DNA from: Escherichia coli
GTDB lineage: Bacteria; Pseudomonadota; Gammaproteobacteria; Enterobacterales; Enterobacteriaceae
Strand: one strand, 5' to 3'
DNA: 64,000 bases
NCBI RefSeq assembly: GCF_030013595.1
Contig: NZ_CP122768.1
Shown: positions 2,889-23,981 of the stretch, in pieces
How the letters are laid out: each line of letters opens with the position of its first letter
How positions within the stretch are numbered: the stretch's first letter is position 1
Made by a program: the position numbers and the translations under genes
Notes under the pieces: generated by a model
Databases searched by the model: none
What the model saw: only the letters and a program-made list of their open reading frames with translations
Told to the model about the DNA's origin: nothing

Positions 2889-14769
<11,881 letters not shown>

Positions 14770-17577: not shown

Positions 17578-18342
17578 ATGAATAACTCCCCCCGCTACCC
17601 GCAGCGCGTTCGCAATGATCTGCGCTTCCGTGAATTGACTGTGCTACGCGCTGAGCGTATTAGCGCCGGTTTTCAGCGCATTGTCCTTGGCGGCGAGGCG
17701 CTGGACGGTTTTACATCGCGCGGCTTTGACGATCACAGCAAACTCTTCTTTCCTCAATCTGATGCTCACTTTGTGCCGCCAACGGTAACGGAAGAGGGCA
17801 TCGTCTGGCCGGAAGGACCACGCCCACCGTCGCGTGACTATACGCCGCTGTATGACGAACTACGCCATGAACTGGCGATTGATTTCTTTATTCACGACGG
17901 TGGCGTCGCCAGCGGCTGGGCGATGCAGGCGCAACCGGGCGATAAACTCACGGTGGCAGGTCCGCGCGGTTCGCTGGTGGTGCCAGAGGATTACGCGTAT
18001 CAGCTGTATGTCTGCGATGAATCCGGAATGCCCGCACTGCGCCGCCGCCTGGAAACGTTGAGCAAACTTGCCGTTAAACCGCAAGTTAGCGCGCTGGTTA
18101 GCGTGCGGGATAACGCCTGTCAGGATTATCTCGCGCACCTTGATGGTTTTAATATCGAATGGCTGGCACATGATGAGCAGGCAGTAGATGCGCGTCTGGC
18201 GCAGATGCAAATCCCTGCCGATGATTACTTCATCTGGATAACCGGCGAAGGCAAAGTCGTTAAGAATTTAAGCCGCCGCTTTGAAGCGGAACAGTATGAT
18301 CCACAGCGGGTACGTGCAGCGGCTTACTGGCACGCAAAGTAA
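17578..18342 (+). CDS. yqjH: Siderophore-interacting ferric reductase YqjH/NfeF (254 aa)
   Basis: Full ORF MNNSPRYPQRVRNDLRFRELTVLRAERISAGF...; FAD-binding siderophore-interacting protein family. Confidence 0.85.
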   Translation: MNNSPRYPQRVRNDLRFRELTVLRAERISAGFQRIVLGGEALDGFTSRGFDDHSKLFFPQSDAHFVPPTVTEEGIVWPEGPRPPSRDYTPLYDELRHELAIDFFIHDGGVASGWAMQAQPGDKLTVAGPRGSLVVPEDYAYQLYVCDESGMPALRRRLETLSKLAVKPQVSALVSVRDNACQDYLAHLDGFNIEWLAHDEQAVDARLAQMQIPADDYFIWITGEGKVVKNLSRRFEAEQYDPQRVRAAAYWHAK

Positions 18343-18916: not shown

Positions 18917-19207
18917 TTATCTGGTGTGGTCGTAGTTCTGCCGTAGTCGTTCACCCTCAGCGCAATGACGCGGTTTTTTAACGCCGCTGGTAACGCAACG
19001 CGGGCAGGTCATGACGTGGCTGATATACGCATCACGGGCAGCCAGCCACGTCGCTGACGGGGCGCACATATCCGCCAGCGCCTGGCCGTTGCTGGTGGTG
19101 TTGTCTTCCGGCCATGTTTCGGGCTGGTGCGCTTCCGGTAAATCCGGTGCAGGTAATGCCCGGATAAACTCACACAATGCATCCGGCAGGCTGAATAACT
19201 TATGCAT
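18917..19207 (-). pseudogene. Probable remnant of a rep/helicase-like gene (96-aa ORF)
   Basis: Shares a ~40-nt segment (acatatccgccagcgYctggccgttgctg) and peptide motif SNGQ(A/T)LADM with the intact helicase gene at 20446-20490; no RBS. Confidence 0.3.
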
Positions 19208-19629
19208 AAATCTGATGTTCTGAATCGCTGAAAACGTGCGTTTTATGGCGTTTTTTCGTGATTTCTGCGTGTTCTGATGTGCTCATTTCGCTGTATCCCT
19301 TGTGTGGCGCGGGCTGCGCGTGTGTTTCGGTGTTCTTTTTTACCGCCAGAAAACGGTAATCAGGCATATAAACACGGCTGTAAGCCGCGCCGCGTCTGGC
19401 TTCGCGTGATTTTGTGCGTCAAAAAGTGCATTTTTGCCCTTAAAAAGCGTTATTCGTAATTCACTGGTAAATGCTCCGCAGGCCGCGCCATTGCTGGCCT
19501 TTTCGCTATTCTGTGTGGTTTTGCTGTTTAACCCGTTTTGCACACTAAAATTGCCTTGCATCCCGCGCCACGTAAGGGATTGCCGGGTTTTTATGTTGCG
19601 TTTTTTGCCGTGCGTAATATTGTGCAAGT

Positions 19630-19875
19630 TGGTGGGACTGGTGGGAACTGTGGGAACCGCCTAGAACCACGCGGCTTTCAGTGGTTCCCACCAGTTCCCA
19701 CGTTGGCTTTTTGTGGGAACCGTGGCGGTTATTTTTTGTTCTTTGCGGTTCCCACCAGTTCCCGCAGAGTTCCCACTCAAAAACGAACAATAATCATACT
19801 GATGGTTTTATTATTTACTGATTTATATATGTTTTATTTTTACGGTTCCCACAGTTCCCACCAGTCCCACCACTT
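19630..19875. repeat. Putative origin of replication: at least 11 GTTCCCAC/GTGGGAAC octamer iterons in both orientations flanking an AT-rich stretch
   Basis: Octamers at 19631, 19640, 19649, 19683, 19693, 19712, 19747, 19757, 19768, 19844, 19853; AT-rich tract 19776-19840; immediately downstream of the helicase gene. Confidence 0.6.
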
Positions 19876-19906: not shown

Positions 19907-21745
19907 TTATTCATCAATTGCGAATAACAATGCATTCTGGCCGATGGCGTAAACGCGGTGTTTCTCCCCGTTAACGGAAACGCGTTTTGTGTATCGGCGT
20001 TTCCCGTCCGTGTCGCGGTCAACAATCGCGCCAGCATCGTCAAGACTGGCCGCTATGCGTTTCAGGTCGTAGCCGCTGGCCGCCTCACATAGTGCTTCCG
20101 GTAAAAACCAGTAAACCCGCTCGCCGTTGCTCCCCGGTCGCCACCATCCGGCGCGGGTGCTTACTGGTTCGCTGTATGTGCTGCCCCCTTCAAAGCGTGA
20201 AGCATGGCGGGCGATAAACCCCGCGACGGCCCGGAGTATTTTCACGTCCTCCGATTGCCCCCGCCCACGATAGTCCGCCCACGCATCAAACATCGCTTTC
20301 ACTGCCTCCAGTGCTTCGCCCTGTTTCCACGGCAGAATCCCGGCAGTTATCGCCATTTCCCCGGCCAGTGCGCACAGTGTGAAACGCGCGGCGGCGCGTG
20401 CCTCCTGTCCGGTGCTTACGGGGAATTGTTCGCGCAGTATGGCGTACATATCCGCCAGCGTCTGGCCGTTGCTGTCGGTGCTGGTGGTGTCACTTTCATT
20501 GCGGGAAATCAGCCAGCGCACAAACTCCGGCCCGGCGTGGCCGTAATGGGTAGCCGCATTACCGCGCAGTGTTTCGGCAAATTTCCGGCCTGCTCCCCGG
20601 CGTTCTGTGTCGTTGTCGGGGTTGTGGGGTAGTGCCATTCCGTGAAGACAGTCAAATGCCCCGTAAAGCCGCTGTGCCGGAATATCCAGTAACCGCATTT
20701 CCTGCCCGGCCTTGATGCGCTGGCCGCCGCTTTCCATGTGTTTACCCACGGTCATTTCCCCGGTGGAAATAATCATGGTGCGCCATGTGTTGACCGGGCG
20801 GGCCATGCCGGACACCTTGCCACGCTGACGGCCTGTTCCGTTGCCAAGCTGATAAATCAGCCCGCCAATATCTCTGGCCGGGGCTTCGCCAATTTCATCC
20901 AGTATCAGCGCGGTATCGTTCCGCATGGTTGCCAGCCCTTCAAGCCCGGTGCTGGTGGCGTTCCAGTTGCGTTTAAAGTTGCGGGGTTCTCCCCATACGC
21001 TACAGGCCACCAGCGCCCCCACGCTTTTCCCGCTGGAACTGTCGCCCATGAAATGAAATCCGCCGCTGTCCACATCAAGCAACCACAGCAACGGCCCGGC
21101 GAGCGATGCACACACGGCCAGCATGGTTACCGGGTTTCCCCGGCATAATGCGGCCACGTTGTCGCGCCAGCCCTCCGGCGTTCCTGCGGTGGCGTACTCC
21201 TGTGAGCCTGCTTCTGTTGACTGAAACACCACATCACCATCACCGATAACCCCGCCCGGCATGACAAACAGGGCCGGGGAGTGCCACCCGGTGGCCGTGG
21301 CCGCGAGCGCCCGGCGTTTTGGTGCTGACTCCATGATGTATTCAGTCAGTGCCTGCCGTTGTTTGTAGGGAATGGTAACGCCCATGCGTAGCAGTTCCTG
21401 CCGGAGTTCTCCGCCGTCTCCGGCGAGCATTTCCATCGGTGCGGCCCATTCCCGCCACTGGCCTGACGGCGTGAGAAAACGGAGTAATCGCCCGTAGTTT
21501 TCGTCTTTGCTGTCGCTGGTCATGGCGATGACCTCCAGCGGGGAACATATAAACGTGTCTGTGTTGGTTGAGTCGCGCACGCCGTGCCAGTAAAGGCCGG
21601 GTTTCAGTATCTGGCCGCCGTCCACCTGTACATGCTGCGAATAAGTGGCGTAGCCCGGACGCGCCGGGCTGACTTTGGGGTGTTTCTTGCGTGGTGGTTT
21701 TCTCTTCCCGGATGTGACCGGGGTTTTAGTGGTTGTCCGGGTCAT
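19907..21745 (-). CDS. Replicative helicase, P4-alpha-like/SF3-type (612 aa)
   Basis: Walker A (GDSSSGKS) and Walker B (ALILDEIGE) motifs; overlaps primase stop by 20 nt; followed by iteron origin. Confidence 0.75.
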   Translation of the reverse strand: MTRTTTKTPVTSGKRKPPRKKHPKVSPARPGYATYSQHVQVDGGQILKPGLYWHGVRDSTNTDTFICSPLEVIAMTSDSKDENYGRLLRFLTPSGQWREWAAPMEMLAGDGGELRQELLRMGVTIPYKQRQALTEYIMESAPKRRALAATATGWHSPALFVMPGGVIGDGDVVFQSTEAGSQEYATAGTPEGWRDNVAALCRGNPVTMLAVCASLAGPLLWLLDVDSGGFHFMGDSSSGKSVGALVACSVWGEPRNFKRNWNATSTGLEGLATMRNDTALILDEIGEAPARDIGGLIYQLGNGTGRQRGKVSGMARPVNTWRTMIISTGEMTVGKHMESGGQRIKAGQEMRLLDIPAQRLYGAFDCLHGMALPHNPDNDTERRGAGRKFAETLRGNAATHYGHAGPEFVRWLISRNESDTTSTDSNGQTLADMYAILREQFPVSTGQEARAAARFTLCALAGEMAITAGILPWKQGEALEAVKAMFDAWADYRGRGQSEDVKILRAVAGFIARHASRFEGGSTYSEPVSTRAGWWRPGSNGERVYWFLPEALCEAASGYDLKRIAASLDDAGAIVDRDTDGKRRYTKRVSVNGEKHRVYAIGQNALLFAIDE

Positions 21746-22769
21746 GCTCCATTTCCCATAGCATCAAATCGTTAAAGTCGGAAAGGTCTGGTGATGCACC
21801 GGGCGGCCATTCCGGGAATGTGACGTAACACCCGGCCAGCAATGCGGCTTCGTTGGCTGCTCTGGAACCGGGGTTATCTTTTGATGCCCGGTCATCATCC
21901 CCGGCGATAACGAGAGATATGCGCGAGCCGTATCGCTCACGCAGCGCCATAGCCACATGTTTAAGGTTTCCCGCATTCATGGCACACACCACGGCCATGA
22001 CGTTCCAGTACTGGAGAAGGGCGGCCCCGGTGGCCCACCCCTCACACACGTAAACGTCATGTTCCGGCGCTTCCGGGGCCATCAGGTCAAAGCTCCCCAT
22101 AACATGGAAAGCCCCCTGCACCTGACCATCACGGAGAAACATTTTTCGACCGTCCGGGCTGATAATCTGCACGTTCACCACTTCGCCGCATACGTTGTAC
22201 AGCGGGACAAGCAAATCATTACCTGACTGATACAGATTGCCGGGCTGTAGCCGTTTTTTCATGAGATAGGGATGAGAAGGGTTTGCCACCTCCGCCCGGC
22301 CAAGCAACTCAAAGGCCCGGCAGGCGGTCAGTTTCTGGCGCTGGTGGCGCTGTTGCTGTTCCCGCTGGCGGAGTCTGGCCGCCTCCTGTTCTGCGGCCTG
22401 TACCCGCACCCGTTGCGCCTCCCGTTGTTCGCGGGTCATTACATCAGGTTTGCCCAGCGCGGGCAGGCACAGCCCCAGCCTGTCCGCCACAATACGGGCG
22501 GCATCAGTCTGCCGCACATTCCATAAATAAGCCCCCAGCGCCACAAGGTCGCCGCCGCTGTCCCCGGTGGCGAAGTCGTGCCAGCATCCGTCCACCAGCG
22601 AGACGGAAAAACTGCCCGCGTGACGGTCTGCACGCGTGGGGTTACGACACACCCATTCAGTGGCCTGCCGTTTACCTTCGGGCAGCCATTCGGGAACAAG
22701 GATTTCTGCATGTTGTGCCGCCACTGCGGCAACGCTACGGATTGCGTTAATCGTGGCTATGTCACGCAT
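21726..22769 (-). CDS. DNA primase with zinc-binding and TOPRIM domains (about 347 aa from MRDIATIN start)
   Basis: Zn-binding region C..HAGSFSV..GCWHDFATGDSGGDLVALGA; TOPRIM motifs VYVCEGWATG and LVIAGDDD; start chosen at ATG 22769 overlapping upstream stop (ATGCGTGA); longest ORF extends to 22919. Confidence 0.7.
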   Translation of the reverse strand: MRDIATINAIRSVAAVAAQHAEILVPEWLPEGKRQATEWVCRNPTRADRHAGSFSVSLVDGCWHDFATGDSGGDLVALGAYLWNVRQTDAARIVADRLGLCLPALGKPDVMTREQREAQRVRVQAAEQEAARLRQREQQQRHQRQKLTACRAFELLGRAEVANPSHPYLMKKRLQPGNLYQSGNDLLVPLYNVCGEVVNVQIISPDGRKMFLRDGQVQGAFHVMGSFDLMAPEAPEHDVYVCEGWATGAALLQYWNVMAVVCAMNAGNLKHVAMALRERYGSRISLVIAGDDDRASKDNPGSRAANEAALLAGCYVTFPEWPPGASPDLSDFNDLMLWEMEHDPDNH

Positions 22770-23076
22770 GTTGCCCGTCCTCCCTGATTTCCCCGGTGCG
22801 GCAGCGCCAGTTATACGCCTCCACAACCTCACTGAATCCGGCCACAAGTTCAGCCGTAACAGCGATGGAATCGCCCAGGCTGCGTAGTTCATTTGGACCA
22901 AGAGCATTATTGTCGCCAATTACCGAAAGTAGCCGCCCTGTGCCAGCCAGCGCATCAAGCAGTTTGCGGGCGCAGTAATCCGCATCATCAAACATTGCGC
23001 GGGCTTCCTGTGCGTCTGCGTTTTTGATGGCCGCAACCAGTAGTTCAGGTATCCGGGTGTTATACATATCACGCAT
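22762..23076 (-). CDS. Hypothetical small protein (104 aa)
   Basis: ORF MRDMYNTRIPELLVAAIKNADAQEARAMFDD...; start overlaps upstream stop and stop overlaps primase start via identical CATGCGTGA junctions. Confidence 0.5.
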   Translation of the reverse strand: MRDMYNTRIPELLVAAIKNADAQEARAMFDDADYCARKLLDALAGTGRLLSVIGDNNALGPNELRSLGDSIAVTAELVAGFSEVVEAYNWRCRTGEIREDGQHA

Positions 23077-23365
23077 GGCTTACCTCCCCGGCCTGCTGGT
23101 CGTAACACTCCATCAGTTCGGCCATACAGCCAATGAGGGCAGGGGCTGTCTGTAGAAATCCGGCTAACTGGCAGATCTCGTCTCTGGAATAGGTGATGGG
23201 GTTTTCGCGTAACTGGCTTTCCTCCAGTGCCTTACCAACAAAGGCAATCCCCGCAAGTAAATTCACTCTGTGCCAGTCTGCATCAACGCGCAGACTCCAG
23301 CGGCTTTCTTCGTCCGGCATACTGCTCATGGCGGCTTTCATTGACTCACGCAGACAATCACGCAT
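23069..23365 (-). CDS. Hypothetical small protein (98 aa, start at internal Met MRDCLRES)
   Basis: ORF linked to neighbours by the same CATGCGTGA stop/start overlap; longest ORF extends to 23446. Confidence 0.45.
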   Translation of the reverse strand: MRDCLRESMKAAMSSMPDEESRWSLRVDADWHRVNLLAGIAFVGKALEESQLRENPITYSRDEICQLAGFLQTAPALIGCMAELMECYDQQAGEVSHA

Positions 23366-23555
23366 GACGCACCCCCTGAGCCGGAACGCGGCCAGCAAAC
23401 AGCAACACAAAATCACGCGCCAGCATACGGCGGGCGGTTGTTTCATCGGGTGCGTTGACGGATTCGCGGTGTGGGCGGTCGTTCAGGTCGGAACGGCGAA
23501 CAGCCAGAAAGTGAAAGGTAAATTCAGGGTGTAACGGGGTTGGGGTCGTAGCCAT
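23358..23555 (-). CDS. Hypothetical small protein (65 aa)
   Basis: Strong Shine-Dalgarno AAGGAGG 8 nt upstream of ATG at 23555; the longer 201-aa ORF has junk-like composition upstream of this Met. Confidence 0.5.
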   Translation of the reverse strand: MATTPTPLHPEFTFHFLAVRRSDLNDRPHRESVNAPDETTARRMLARDFVLLFAGRVPAQGVRHA

Positions 23556-23582
23556 TCTGGCAGCCTCCTTTTGCAAATTTAA

Positions 23583-23621
23583 GGAGTCACCGCCTGAGTT
23601 CCTACACTCATAAGGGGCGGT
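23583..23621. promoter_or_regulatory. Inverted repeat GTCACCGCC-N21-GGCGGTGAC upstream of the small-gene operon (candidate operator or 5' hairpin)
   Basis: Perfect 9-bp inverted repeat 26-70 nt upstream of the 23555 start codon. Confidence 0.3.
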
Positions 23622-23744
23622 GACGCTGGCAGGGGTAGGAATACCGGCGCAAAAGGAAACCGGCCAGCCTTTCGGCTGCCCCACCAGCGCCACCATAGAT
23701 ACAGTGCGGGTCTTGCCGCTGTGCATGGGTGCGCGATGGCACGA

Positions 23745-23775
23745 CACAAAAAAAGACGCTGGGCGCGTCTGTGTC
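23745..23775 (-). terminator. Rho-independent terminator downstream of alpA
   Basis: Minus-strand agacgcgcccagcgtct hairpin followed by TTTTTTT. Confidence 0.45.
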
Positions 23776-23981
23776 GCCTTTTGCTCATTAAACGGGTTCC
23801 TACGCCCGGCTGGTGGATTTACACCAGCGGGGGAAATATAACGCCCACCAGCGATGGCAGGCAAGCAATATTTGCGGTTGCCGCCCATCCCGTGGGGCGT
23901 GTGGTGGTTGTTTTGGGCGTGAGAACGCCCCGGCCCTGTTACGGGCCTTTCTGGCATTTTCATAATGATTATCGCGGTTGG

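Follow-up and report, generated by a model that had tools for sequence, protein, structure and literature searches.

A stop/start word repeated at three gene junctions of an Escherichia coli satellite island is probably a translational connector between an Icd-like leader and replication genes

Why should the same nine-nucleotide word lie across the end of one gene and the beginning of the next, three times in a row? The question is raised by a 64,000-nucleotide stretch of Escherichia coli DNA (contig NZ_CP122768.1 of assembly GCF_030013595.1; the whole of this stretch is called the window below), in which three successive gene junctions of an island of about 8 kb, all read on the minus strand, carry the word CATGCGTGA. 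This E. coli island is inserted at a tRNA gene with a CAT anticodon that adjoins mug and rpoD (ileX, tRNA-Ile2), and the junctions join an Icd-like leader gene, two small genes named orf98 and orf104 after the lengths of their products, and a primase gene. The first-pass annotation of this DNA had described an identical overlapping stop and start at all three, and it was found that the positions and the frames are as it claimed:

23358..23366, minus strand: junction 1, CATGCGTGA, stop of the Icd-like gene across start of orf98; Shine-Dalgarno (SD) sequence GGGGG, 6 nt to the ATG
23069..23077, minus strand: junction 2, CATGCGTGA, stop of orf98 across start of orf104; SD GGAGG, 6 nt to the ATG
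22762..22770, minus strand: junction 3, CATGCGTGA, stop of orf104 across start of the primase gene; SD GGAGG, 9 nt to the ATG

All three junctions are 8-nt overlaps, in which the upstream frame reads CAT GCG TGA (His-Ala-stop) and the downstream, +1 frame reads ATG CGT GAx (Met-Arg-Asp), and the stop of the upstream gene is 5 nt past the start of the next gene. Each SD sits within the tail of the upstream gene and is followed by 6 to 9 nt and then by ATG-NNT-GA. The three copies are 289-307 nt apart, and the tenth base is T at 23358-23366 and 23069-23077, and C at 22762-22770. The explanation that we favor, and consider probable, is that the three copies of CATGCGTGA serve as stop/start connectors in an operon without gaps, in a P4-related satellite island, similar to a phage-inducible chromosomal island (PICI), at ileX, and that they couple the translation of its genes.

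The number of copies was evaluated in the whole window, where CATGCGTGA was found 4 times compared to an expected 0.96, and 0 of 100 shuffled sequences had 4 copies. However, once the 8-nt overlap ATGNNTGA is fixed, there are only three free positions (the base before the ATG and the two N positions), and the raw k-mer count therefore greatly overstates how improbable it is that the three 9-mers are identical. The strongly non-random feature is the run of three -8 overlaps rather than the identity of the 9-mers. The -8 spacing is the third commonest overlap class in E. coli (PMC10666635, PMC12548453), and 2 of the 73 co-directional K-12 pairs, among the pairs listed, belong to it. The fourth copy of CATGCGTGA is within rpoD (29029-29037), away from gene junctions, and is apparently a chance occurrence unrelated to the other three.

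The operon runs in the order promoter, isrK-like RNA, C4/CI-type antisense RNA, Icd-like Kil/Eta leader, orf98, orf104, Toprim primase and DUF927 helicase, with the following features (ORF, open reading frame; RBS, ribosome-binding site; pLDDT, predicted local distance difference test):

23835..23864, minus strand: sigma-70-like promoter, TTGCCT, 18 nt, TATATT (consensus scan, pattern match only)
23749..23828, minus strand: isrK-family RNA (Rfam RF01394, 60.7 bits compared to a gathering score of 50)
23613..23700, minus strand: C4/CI-type antisense (immunity) RNA (Rfam RF01695, 79.6 bits compared to a gathering score of 45)
23358..23963, minus strand: 201-aa ORF, equivalent of P4 Eta ('ash/cI' ORF), annotated as 'Icd-like' in the ETEC4090 locus L001 (PHROG 6928)
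23358..23555, minus strand: 65-aa Icd-like leader, equivalent of P4 Kil, with RBS AAGGAGG and ending in ...GVRHA-stop (NCBIfam NF033153, E 1.3e-20)
23069..23365, minus strand: orf98, near-orphan three-helix protein (structure model; hhalign comparison with orf104)
22762..23076, minus strand: orf104, three-helix-bundle protein (structure model with pLDDT 87; alignment)
21726..22769, minus strand: Toprim-domain primase, 347 aa (PHROG 2249 'DNA primase', E 2.6e-50; L001 annotation)
19907..21745, minus strand: DUF927 helicase-type replication protein, 612 aa (PHROG 1139, E 2.5e-74; partial match to a Cch1-like NCBIfam family)

From the ATG of the leader to the stop of the helicase gene there are zero non-coding bases, and the primase and helicase genes have 20 nt in common (21726-21745), at the end of the former. 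At the three junctions, the stop/start distance falls within the range of -8 to +6 nt, with an SD in the upstream gene, by which coupled pairs are recognized, and the -8 spacing is itself an enriched coupling motif (PMC12548453, PMC10666635). The earlier proposal of a tightly coupled four-gene cassette is supported by the comparison of relatives given below, except that the unit is larger, because the helicase gene is overlapped too. From the arrangement of the genes, and by analogy with known systems, we infer that coupling operates in the island. A ribosome that ends one cistron would re-initiate on the next or would open the next initiation site, and no untranslated RNA would be exposed between the leader and the replication genes, so that Rho would find no free RNA. 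Control exerted on the first cistron (by antisense RNA, premature termination or Rho polarity) would be passed along the chain to the primase and helicase, and the antisense-RNA switch at the first cistron would decide replication-gene expression.

This explanation needs the ATG within each connector to be used, and sequence comparison indicates that the Met-Arg-Asp ATGs are genuine starts. The NCBI annotation of the identical locus in E. coli strain ETEC4090 (L001) places the starts at these codons. The frame of orf104 is closed one codon 5′ of its ATG, the primase frame in the relatives L011 and L013 is without an alternative upstream start, and the ATG of orf98 is unchanged in L004 despite a different upstream neighbor gene. 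The alternative scenario, that longer upstream starts are used and the Met-Arg-Asp codons are internal, is unsupported by these relatives.

Among the searches for related loci (designated by L numbers), a single scan of genome contigs with the orf104 alignment gave only 2 loci, and scans of viral contigs with the primase and the Icd-like protein gave 3 loci each. Runs of overlaps were found by a script that linked ORFs through shared stop/start overlaps. Consecutive -8 overlaps were present in loci of E. coli, E. albertii, Salmonella, Klebsiella and Citrobacter and in unassigned or metagenomic contigs, whatever the cassette content. There were two in L002, L003, L007, L011, L016-18, L019 and L045, three in L009, L010 and L013-15, and four in L004 and L023-30; L047 had one. 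The -8 geometry, with an SD at each junction, was kept in every relative examined, in P4 and in a Pasteurella satellite, even beside different neighbor genes. Chains of -8 overlaps are, in this sense, a family trait of an operon that ties satellite immunity to replication.

The genes joined by these overlaps vary. The order leader, orf98, orf104 and primase is found in the window, ETEC4090 and E. albertii, and the order leader, orf104 and primase in UMNF18, Klebsiella and Salmonella, whereas JNEC-KY174 has a 154-aa Icd-like gene between the leader and orf98, followed by orf104 and the primase. In L023-30, an AntA-domain ORF, an ASH ORF, the 154-aa gene, orf104 and the primase are joined by four -8 overlaps in series. 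The L003 and L031-38 loci have the leader, the 154-aa gene and orf104, then a gap, a DUF4222 gene and a RepA-type helicase gene. In L013-15, an AntA ORF, a 229-aa gene, a 106-aa gene and orf104 are followed by an ATGA overlap and the primase, and in L019, a Bro-N ORF, an ASH ORF and orf104 are followed by an 11-nt overlap and an alpha-type primase (810 aa). In the Pasteurella satellite Pmp7, two consecutive CATGCGTAA connectors follow the Icd-like gene.

The connector varies too, and its forms in relatives include ATGTGTGA, ATGTCTGA, ATGCATGA, ATGATTGA, ATGCTTAA and ATGATTAA, among others. Across the orf104 family, residue 2 is R, C, S, T, A or P, and there are several different C-terminal endings. 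The commonest middle codon of the connector is CGT, found in orf98, orf104, the Toprim primase gene, a 173-aa ASH gene, P4 epsilon, two Pmp7 genes and a metagenomic 61-aa gene. In L046, four successive junctions (2868, 3319, 4106 and 4281) have an extended AGGGGGTG-N4-5-ATG connector, a longer repeat than that in the window, which could be a better substrate for unequal exchange.

The Icd-like family itself was surveyed by a profile search of 1.84 billion representative proteins, which gave 597 clusters, and the domain was almost always at the extreme C terminus. In the best 150 of the 597 clusters, the penultimate residue was His in 101; at the last position there were 90 Ala, 22 Gly and 21 Val, and His-Ala was the most frequent ending (60). 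Ala, Gly and Val are all specified by codons starting with G, matching the CAT-GNN-stop that a C-ATG-NNT-RA overlap demands. Because a His codon, a G-starting codon and a stop are the footprint of this overlap, the -8 connector is an old, conserved trait of the Icd-like 3′ end, whatever gene is next. As the ancestral 3′ terminus of this gene family, junction 1 was inherited along with the Icd-like gene. The repeated junction is real, conserved and, in all likelihood, functional, and it is a further case of an already known coupling device in an operon of known type. Any novelty is descriptive, namely that the -8 connector is a family-wide hallmark of satellite Icd-like leaders and bounds a slot of small genes with fast turnover. 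An odd repeat is explained in this way as a gene connector, and an unannotated E. coli island is placed among the P4 and PICI satellites.

The first part of the operon contains the RNA genes on which the proposed control would depend. The promoter-like site directly 5′ of the isrK-like RNA is a candidate equivalent of P4 PLE. The isrK-like RNA has a terminal hairpin and T-run at 23770-23754 and a GTAGGAA box at 23803-23797. The C4-type RNA contains the boxes TTCCTAC (23641-23635) and GTCACCGCC (23624-23616), and their complements, read directly from the sequence, lie just 3′ of this RNA and before the leader RBS (GTAGGAA at 23605-23599 and GGCGGTGAC at 23594-23586). The GTAGGAA box is therefore present on both sides of the C4-type RNA, with the second copy upstream within the isrK-like RNA, whereas GGCGGTGAC is downstream only. 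Calculated RNA duplex energies between the C4-type RNA and the junctions were no better than background; this calculation is uninformative for long sequences and was replaced by direct inspection for complementary words.

The 201-aa ORF crosses both RNA genes and has its frame and stop in common with the 65-aa ORF, which is 52% identical to the P4 ORF preceding epsilon. The strong RBS belongs to the short, 65-aa form. In public annotations, the stretch where Rfam recognizes the isrK and C4 RNAs is covered by the 201-aa 'Icd-like' protein or by a separate 'ash family protein'. This is likely an annotation problem that is corrected here, in that the 'ash' and 201-aa 'Icd-like' ORFs overlie two RNA genes.

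The closest known arrangement is the left operon of P4, which consists of PLE, seqA, the CI RNA, kil/eta, epsilon, orf151, (cnr) and alpha. In both, an AlpA-like gene is upstream, an RNA of the C4/CI family comes before an Icd-like ORF of 65 codons that lies within a longer ORF, and replication genes are further on. The kil/eta and epsilon genes are joined by GTGCGTAA and epsilon and orf151 by ATGTTTGA, both of which are 8-nt overlaps. The nesting of kil in eta (the old 'cI/ash' ORF), described previously (PMC10111431), matches the nesting of the 65-aa ORF in the 201-aa ORF of the window, and in P4, the translation of eta/kil reportedly prevents premature termination, so that the downstream genes are transcribed (PMC10111431). 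Three features of a P4-type immunity operon were found in the window: a C4/CI RNA directly 5′ of the first cistron, an Icd-like/Phage_ASH first cistron with the short form nested in the long one and, in the predicted transcript, RNA-complementary boxes flanking the C4-type RNA.

The differences from P4 are in the genes that follow. The cassettes of the window show no relationship to epsilon or orf151 (hhalign E 0.23 and 0.64), there is a separate Toprim primase and DUF927 helicase where P4 has a single alpha protein, and the chain in the window is without any intergenic gap. The island has no room for psu, delta and sid (capsid-size and late-gene control), which belong with int, alpA, epsilon/ash and alpha to the gene set of a strict P4-like satellite in the SatelliteFinder sense, and no unassigned ORF of suitable size was found between the tRNA gene (26713) and the chromosomal gene that flanks the island at 18342. 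An alpha-type fused primase-helicase (D5_N/Pox_D5) was not found in the window, although the relative L019 has one. The island is therefore like the P4 left operon without being a strict P4-like satellite, and it fits a minimal PICI-like layout. As in Gram-negative PICIs of the EcCICFT073 type, it is a small island at a tRNA gene, a conserved chromosomal site, with a co-oriented integrase gene, AlpA-like gene and primase/replicase genes, and with iteron-like repeats after the replicase. It differs from them in the C4/Icd module, which is a P4-type trait, and no packaging or capsid-redirection genes were recognized in the island of about 8 kb.

The immI region of P1/P7 (c4, icd, ant1/ant2) also has a C4 antisense RNA with a/b target boxes and an Icd-like first cistron that overlaps the downstream gene. 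According to the annotation of the P1 record, the C4 targets repress 'icd ant translation', and icd is needed for ant expression. In P1, however, the overlap is of 4 nt (ATGA), there is one downstream gene, an antirepressor, in place of a chain ending in replication genes, and the b2 box covers the icd RBS, whereas the boxes in the window end upstream of the leader RBS. The ATGA coupling of C4-icd phages is found in P1 icd/ant1 and N15 gp32/gp31/ant. In the Gifsy-1 isrK-orf45-anrP region of Salmonella, an isrK-family RNA likewise precedes a short leader ORF whose translation is coupled to that of the next gene, and start- and stop-codon mutations showed that isrK-controlled translation of orf45 drives anrP by translational coupling (PMC4825925). 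This system differs in its AUGA overlap, its single downstream gene, its location in a lambdoid prophage, and in that IsrK activates in trans. Generic coupled pairs with a -8 overlap (NTGNNTGA) have the same spacing class and an SD inside the upstream gene (PMC12548453, PMC10666635); they are scattered single pairs, often encoding subunits of one complex, whereas the window and its relatives have three or four in series, joining unrelated exchangeable small genes and kept as an operon trait of a mobile element.

The two small genes between the leader and the primase have few relatives. For orf98, there were 3 clusters among 5.8 billion proteins, occurrences in 27 of 5426 E. coli genomes, and one homologue of 66% identity in IMG/VR. 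The orf104 family is larger, with 54 clusters at 90% identity and occurrences in 38 of 5426 complete E. coli genomes; its hosts are all Enterobacterales (E. coli, Shigella, Salmonella, Klebsiella, Citrobacter, Lelliottia and Plesiomonas), and the gene is located 3′ of an Icd-like gene, directly or past one small cassette (orf98 here), and 5′ of a replication gene. Neither protein matched a family in Pfam, NCBIfam, PHROGs or PADLOC, and a Foldseek search of BFVD and PDB with the orf104 model gave only non-significant helical matches.

No match between orf98 and orf104 was found by BLASTP. However, an hhalign comparison gave an E-value of 4.5e-4 over 70 colinear columns (DAD[YW]...LL...G[RK].L and the C-terminal helix), with a score of 25.8 compared to a column-shuffle mean of 11.2 (standard deviation 2.3) and 0 of 200 shuffles reaching 25.8, and the AlphaFold models of the two proteins have the same three-helix topology. 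Therefore, orf98 and orf104 are probably diverged tandem paralogues, a relationship that came to light only when profiles and fold topologies were compared. Another pair of paralogues is formed by the Icd-like genes for the 65-aa and 154-aa products. In hhalign control comparisons, similarity to P4 epsilon was not found (E 0.23 and 0.64). The slot of orf98 and orf104 matches the position of P4 epsilon, the helper derepressor, and a role in interaction with a helper would be only a guess based on this position. Nevertheless, this variable slot between leader and primase, with its near-orphan small proteins, is a reasonable place to seek helper-phage interaction factors.

Two variants of the region around orf98 were observed. 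A 161-aa protein cluster (P0055, 90 member sequences), found only on read-assembly contigs of at most 1.5 kb, has the Icd-like leader and orf98 joined in one frame (...SQGCAMRDC...). It fits the loss of one G from the G5 run of the SD at junction 1 and may be a true variant or a homopolymer error. In the IMG/VR locus L042, the orf98 homologue of 66% identity (3191-3472) is joined to an Icd-like leader of 95% identity by CATGCGTAA and ends in ATGAGTGA, without a long ORF behind; this connector-like ending of the chain is possibly the relic of a lost downstream cassette.

Several observations weigh against coupling as the explanation of the connectors. There is a competent SD at each junction, so independent initiation is possible; the -8 spacing is less efficient for re-initiation than -4 or -1 (PMC10666635); and RNA structure that would occlude the starts was not predicted at the junctions (z-scores of -1.1 to +1.1 relative to shuffled controls). 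The boxes complementary to the C4-type RNA end about 14 nt 5′ of the leader SD and do not cover it as in P1, and therefore the control step may be termination, as in P4, rather than RBS occlusion. Coupling alone does not explain the excess of CGT across at least 8 unrelated downstream genes. The choice of -8 by these satellites, in comparison to the -4 of P1 and N15, and its use with CGT as opposed to ATGA pose a small, testable question about re-initiation.

If the connectors are accounted for by coupling, it may still be asked why the three are identical. It is possible, although we would not expect it, that their identity is largely a coincidence under constraint, with CG being the favored filling of the free positions. 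GCG (Ala) and CGT (Arg) are preferred E. coli codons, CGT alone among the NNT codons places a strongly basic amino acid at residue 2, and the relatives have one-step CpG transitions (CGT to TGT and CGT to CAT) and other fillings with the architecture kept, as also seen in the variable residue 2 and endings of the orf104 family. The occurrence of CGT before at least 8 unrelated downstream genes (including P4 epsilon, two Pasteurella satellite genes and a metagenomic lineage) is, however, far above 1 in 16, and there must therefore be some selective or historical cause; C at position -1 (in the His codon) is strongly preferred as well. The CGT bias may stem from its strongly basic residue, unique among NNT codons, from the codon preference for both GCG and CGT, or from descent by duplication. 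The last bears on junction 2, because a tandem duplication in register copies the connector, and the junction of orf98 and orf104 probably originated in this way. Homogenization of the 8-mers within an island was also considered (CGT three times in the window, TCT twice in Salmonella islands, with ATGTCTGA at both junctions) and was rejected, because sister variants of orf104 are discordant, mixing N- and C-terminal junction types.

A related suggestion, made in the first-pass annotation, was that the repeated junction is a site for the shuffling of modules. The SD-ATGNNTGA stretch (9-22 nt) would then be a microhomology at which unequal crossing-over or slippage duplicates, deletes or swaps cassettes in register, and identical 9-mers would be its footprint. 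Cassettes do differ exactly at the junctions: UMNF18 is without orf98, other islands have other genes at the same connectors, and in JNEC-KY174 the 154-aa Icd-like cassette is inserted at junction 1 with its boundary within a few nt of the ATG. Neighboring cassettes are paralogous (orf98/orf104 and the 65-aa/154-aa Icd-like genes), the tail of orf98, G-E-V-S-H-A (GGGGAGGTAAGCCATG), resembles an Icd-type tail, and the AGGGGGTG-N4-5-ATG element is common to four connectors of L046. However, the breakpoints that could be mapped are inside orf104. In UMNF18 (L002) compared to the window, the first 65 nt or so of orf104 have diverged and the remainder is nearly identical, with a breakpoint at about +66, and the orf104 genes of L003 (in a RepA context) and L023 (in a primase context) match exactly as far as about +190 to +226, after which L023 has the window-type tail with the primase connector. 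Such breakpoints in conserved coding stretches are those of ordinary homologous recombination. The 8-mer also varies between relatives and between junctions of one island (L002, L004 and L011), residue 2 of orf104 is free, a stretch of nine bases is too short for RecA-dependent exchange, and insertion/deletion boundaries at ORF ends are expected under any mechanism from selection for intact, coupled genes. A conserved site with a cognate recombinase, as in integron-like cassette systems, was not found, the only recombinase being the tRNA-site integrase. We therefore consider the connector doubtful as a recombination substrate, and there is no support for a site dedicated to recombination; duplication or deletion through microhomology at the connectors is a reasonable minor contributor. 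A more elaborate scheme seems to us unlikely, namely that the -8 connector (SD, about 6 nt, C-ATG-CGT-RA) is a standard 'plug' at which cassettes are gained, duplicated or lost by unequal exchange and then come under antisense-RNA control, that orf98 and orf104 are fast-evolving, epsilon-like helper-interaction factors, and that the CGT and His-Ala bias is due to a requirement of backward re-initiation and not to history. Programmed +1 (or -2) frameshifting, which would yield fusions such as Icd-orf98 and orf104-primase, is very improbable: the downstream frame is +1 of the upstream frame at every junction and P0055 is such a fusion, but there is no conserved slippery or hungry-codon motif, an SD and ATG at every junction would be needless for a fusion, the downstream partner changes between islands, and P0055 is explained by the loss of a single G on short contigs. 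We give equally little credence to CATGCGTGA being a DNA or RNA binding site (an antisense-RNA target, iteron or operator) that coincides with gene ends, as its regular recurrence might suggest; it is not complementary to the C4 RNA boxes, whose targets are at 23605-23586, the iteron-like repeats of the island have a different sequence, CATGCGTGA is not conserved in relatives with the architecture kept, and no local RNA structure was predicted.

Upstream of the operon and downstream of the helicase gene, the following features were found:

26713..26788, minus strand: tRNA gene with CAT anticodon, the integration site of the island (ARAGORN, Rfam tRNA; tRNA-Ile in the ETEC4090 annotation)
25250..26524, minus strand: tyrosine integrase of P4 type, 424-aa ORF (ORF list; integrase in the L001 annotation)
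24370..25248, minus strand: 296/292-aa hypothetical protein between the integrase and AlpA-like genes (ORF list, L001 annotation)
23982..24236, minus strand: AlpA-like helix-turn-helix regulator/excisionase, equivalent of P4 orf88 (PHROG 66, E 2e-12; L001 annotation)
19683-19699, 19747-19763 and 19853-19869, no strand assigned: three copies of GGTTCCCACCAGTTCCC, 17 nt, directly 3′ of the DUF927 helicase gene (repeat search)
18917..19367, minus strand: pair of 55-aa and 96-aa ORFs at the far end of the island, with an 8-nt overlap, ATGCATAA, at 19200-19207

The integrases of homologous loci have Arm-DNA-bind_3, Phage_int_M and Phage_integrase domains, the AlpA-like homologues have Phage_AlpA/HTH_17 (PHROG 66 is described as 'excisionase and transcriptional regulator'), and a Toprim_3 domain is present in the primase homologues. 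The 296-aa ORF was without a match in NCBIfam, PHROGs and PADLOC. Two of the GGTTCCCACCAGTTCCC copies are identical and one is 82% identical; these repeats are candidate replication-origin iterons of the island, a function assigned from position alone.

The ATGCATAA-type junction of the 55-aa and 96-aa ORFs is kept in the Salmonella loci L016-L018, near position 7870, and the two ORFs had no family match in PADLOC, the sole database scanned for that pair. A direct repeat of 43 nt, 88% identical, was found between 19061-19103 in the 96-aa ORF and 20441-20483 inside the helicase gene, the copies encoding ...SNGQALADMCA... and ...SNGQTLADMYA..., respectively, which suggests that the 96-aa ORF contains the remnant of a duplicated helicase segment.

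For the far island end, a search for att repeats of at least 17 nt gave none, and therefore the island boundary near 18.4-18.9 kb is approximate. Beyond it, the window has a 254-aa ORF (17578-18342) that, judged by its sequence, looks like the chromosomal gene for a siderophore-interacting (YqjH-like) protein. In ETEC4090 (L001 10966-13555), the island is followed by remnants of the IS6 family of insertion sequences, aac(3)-IVa and aph(3′)-Ia, whereas resistance genes were not noted in the window at 17578-18342. It seems that the window is from a strain other than ETEC4090, its best match.

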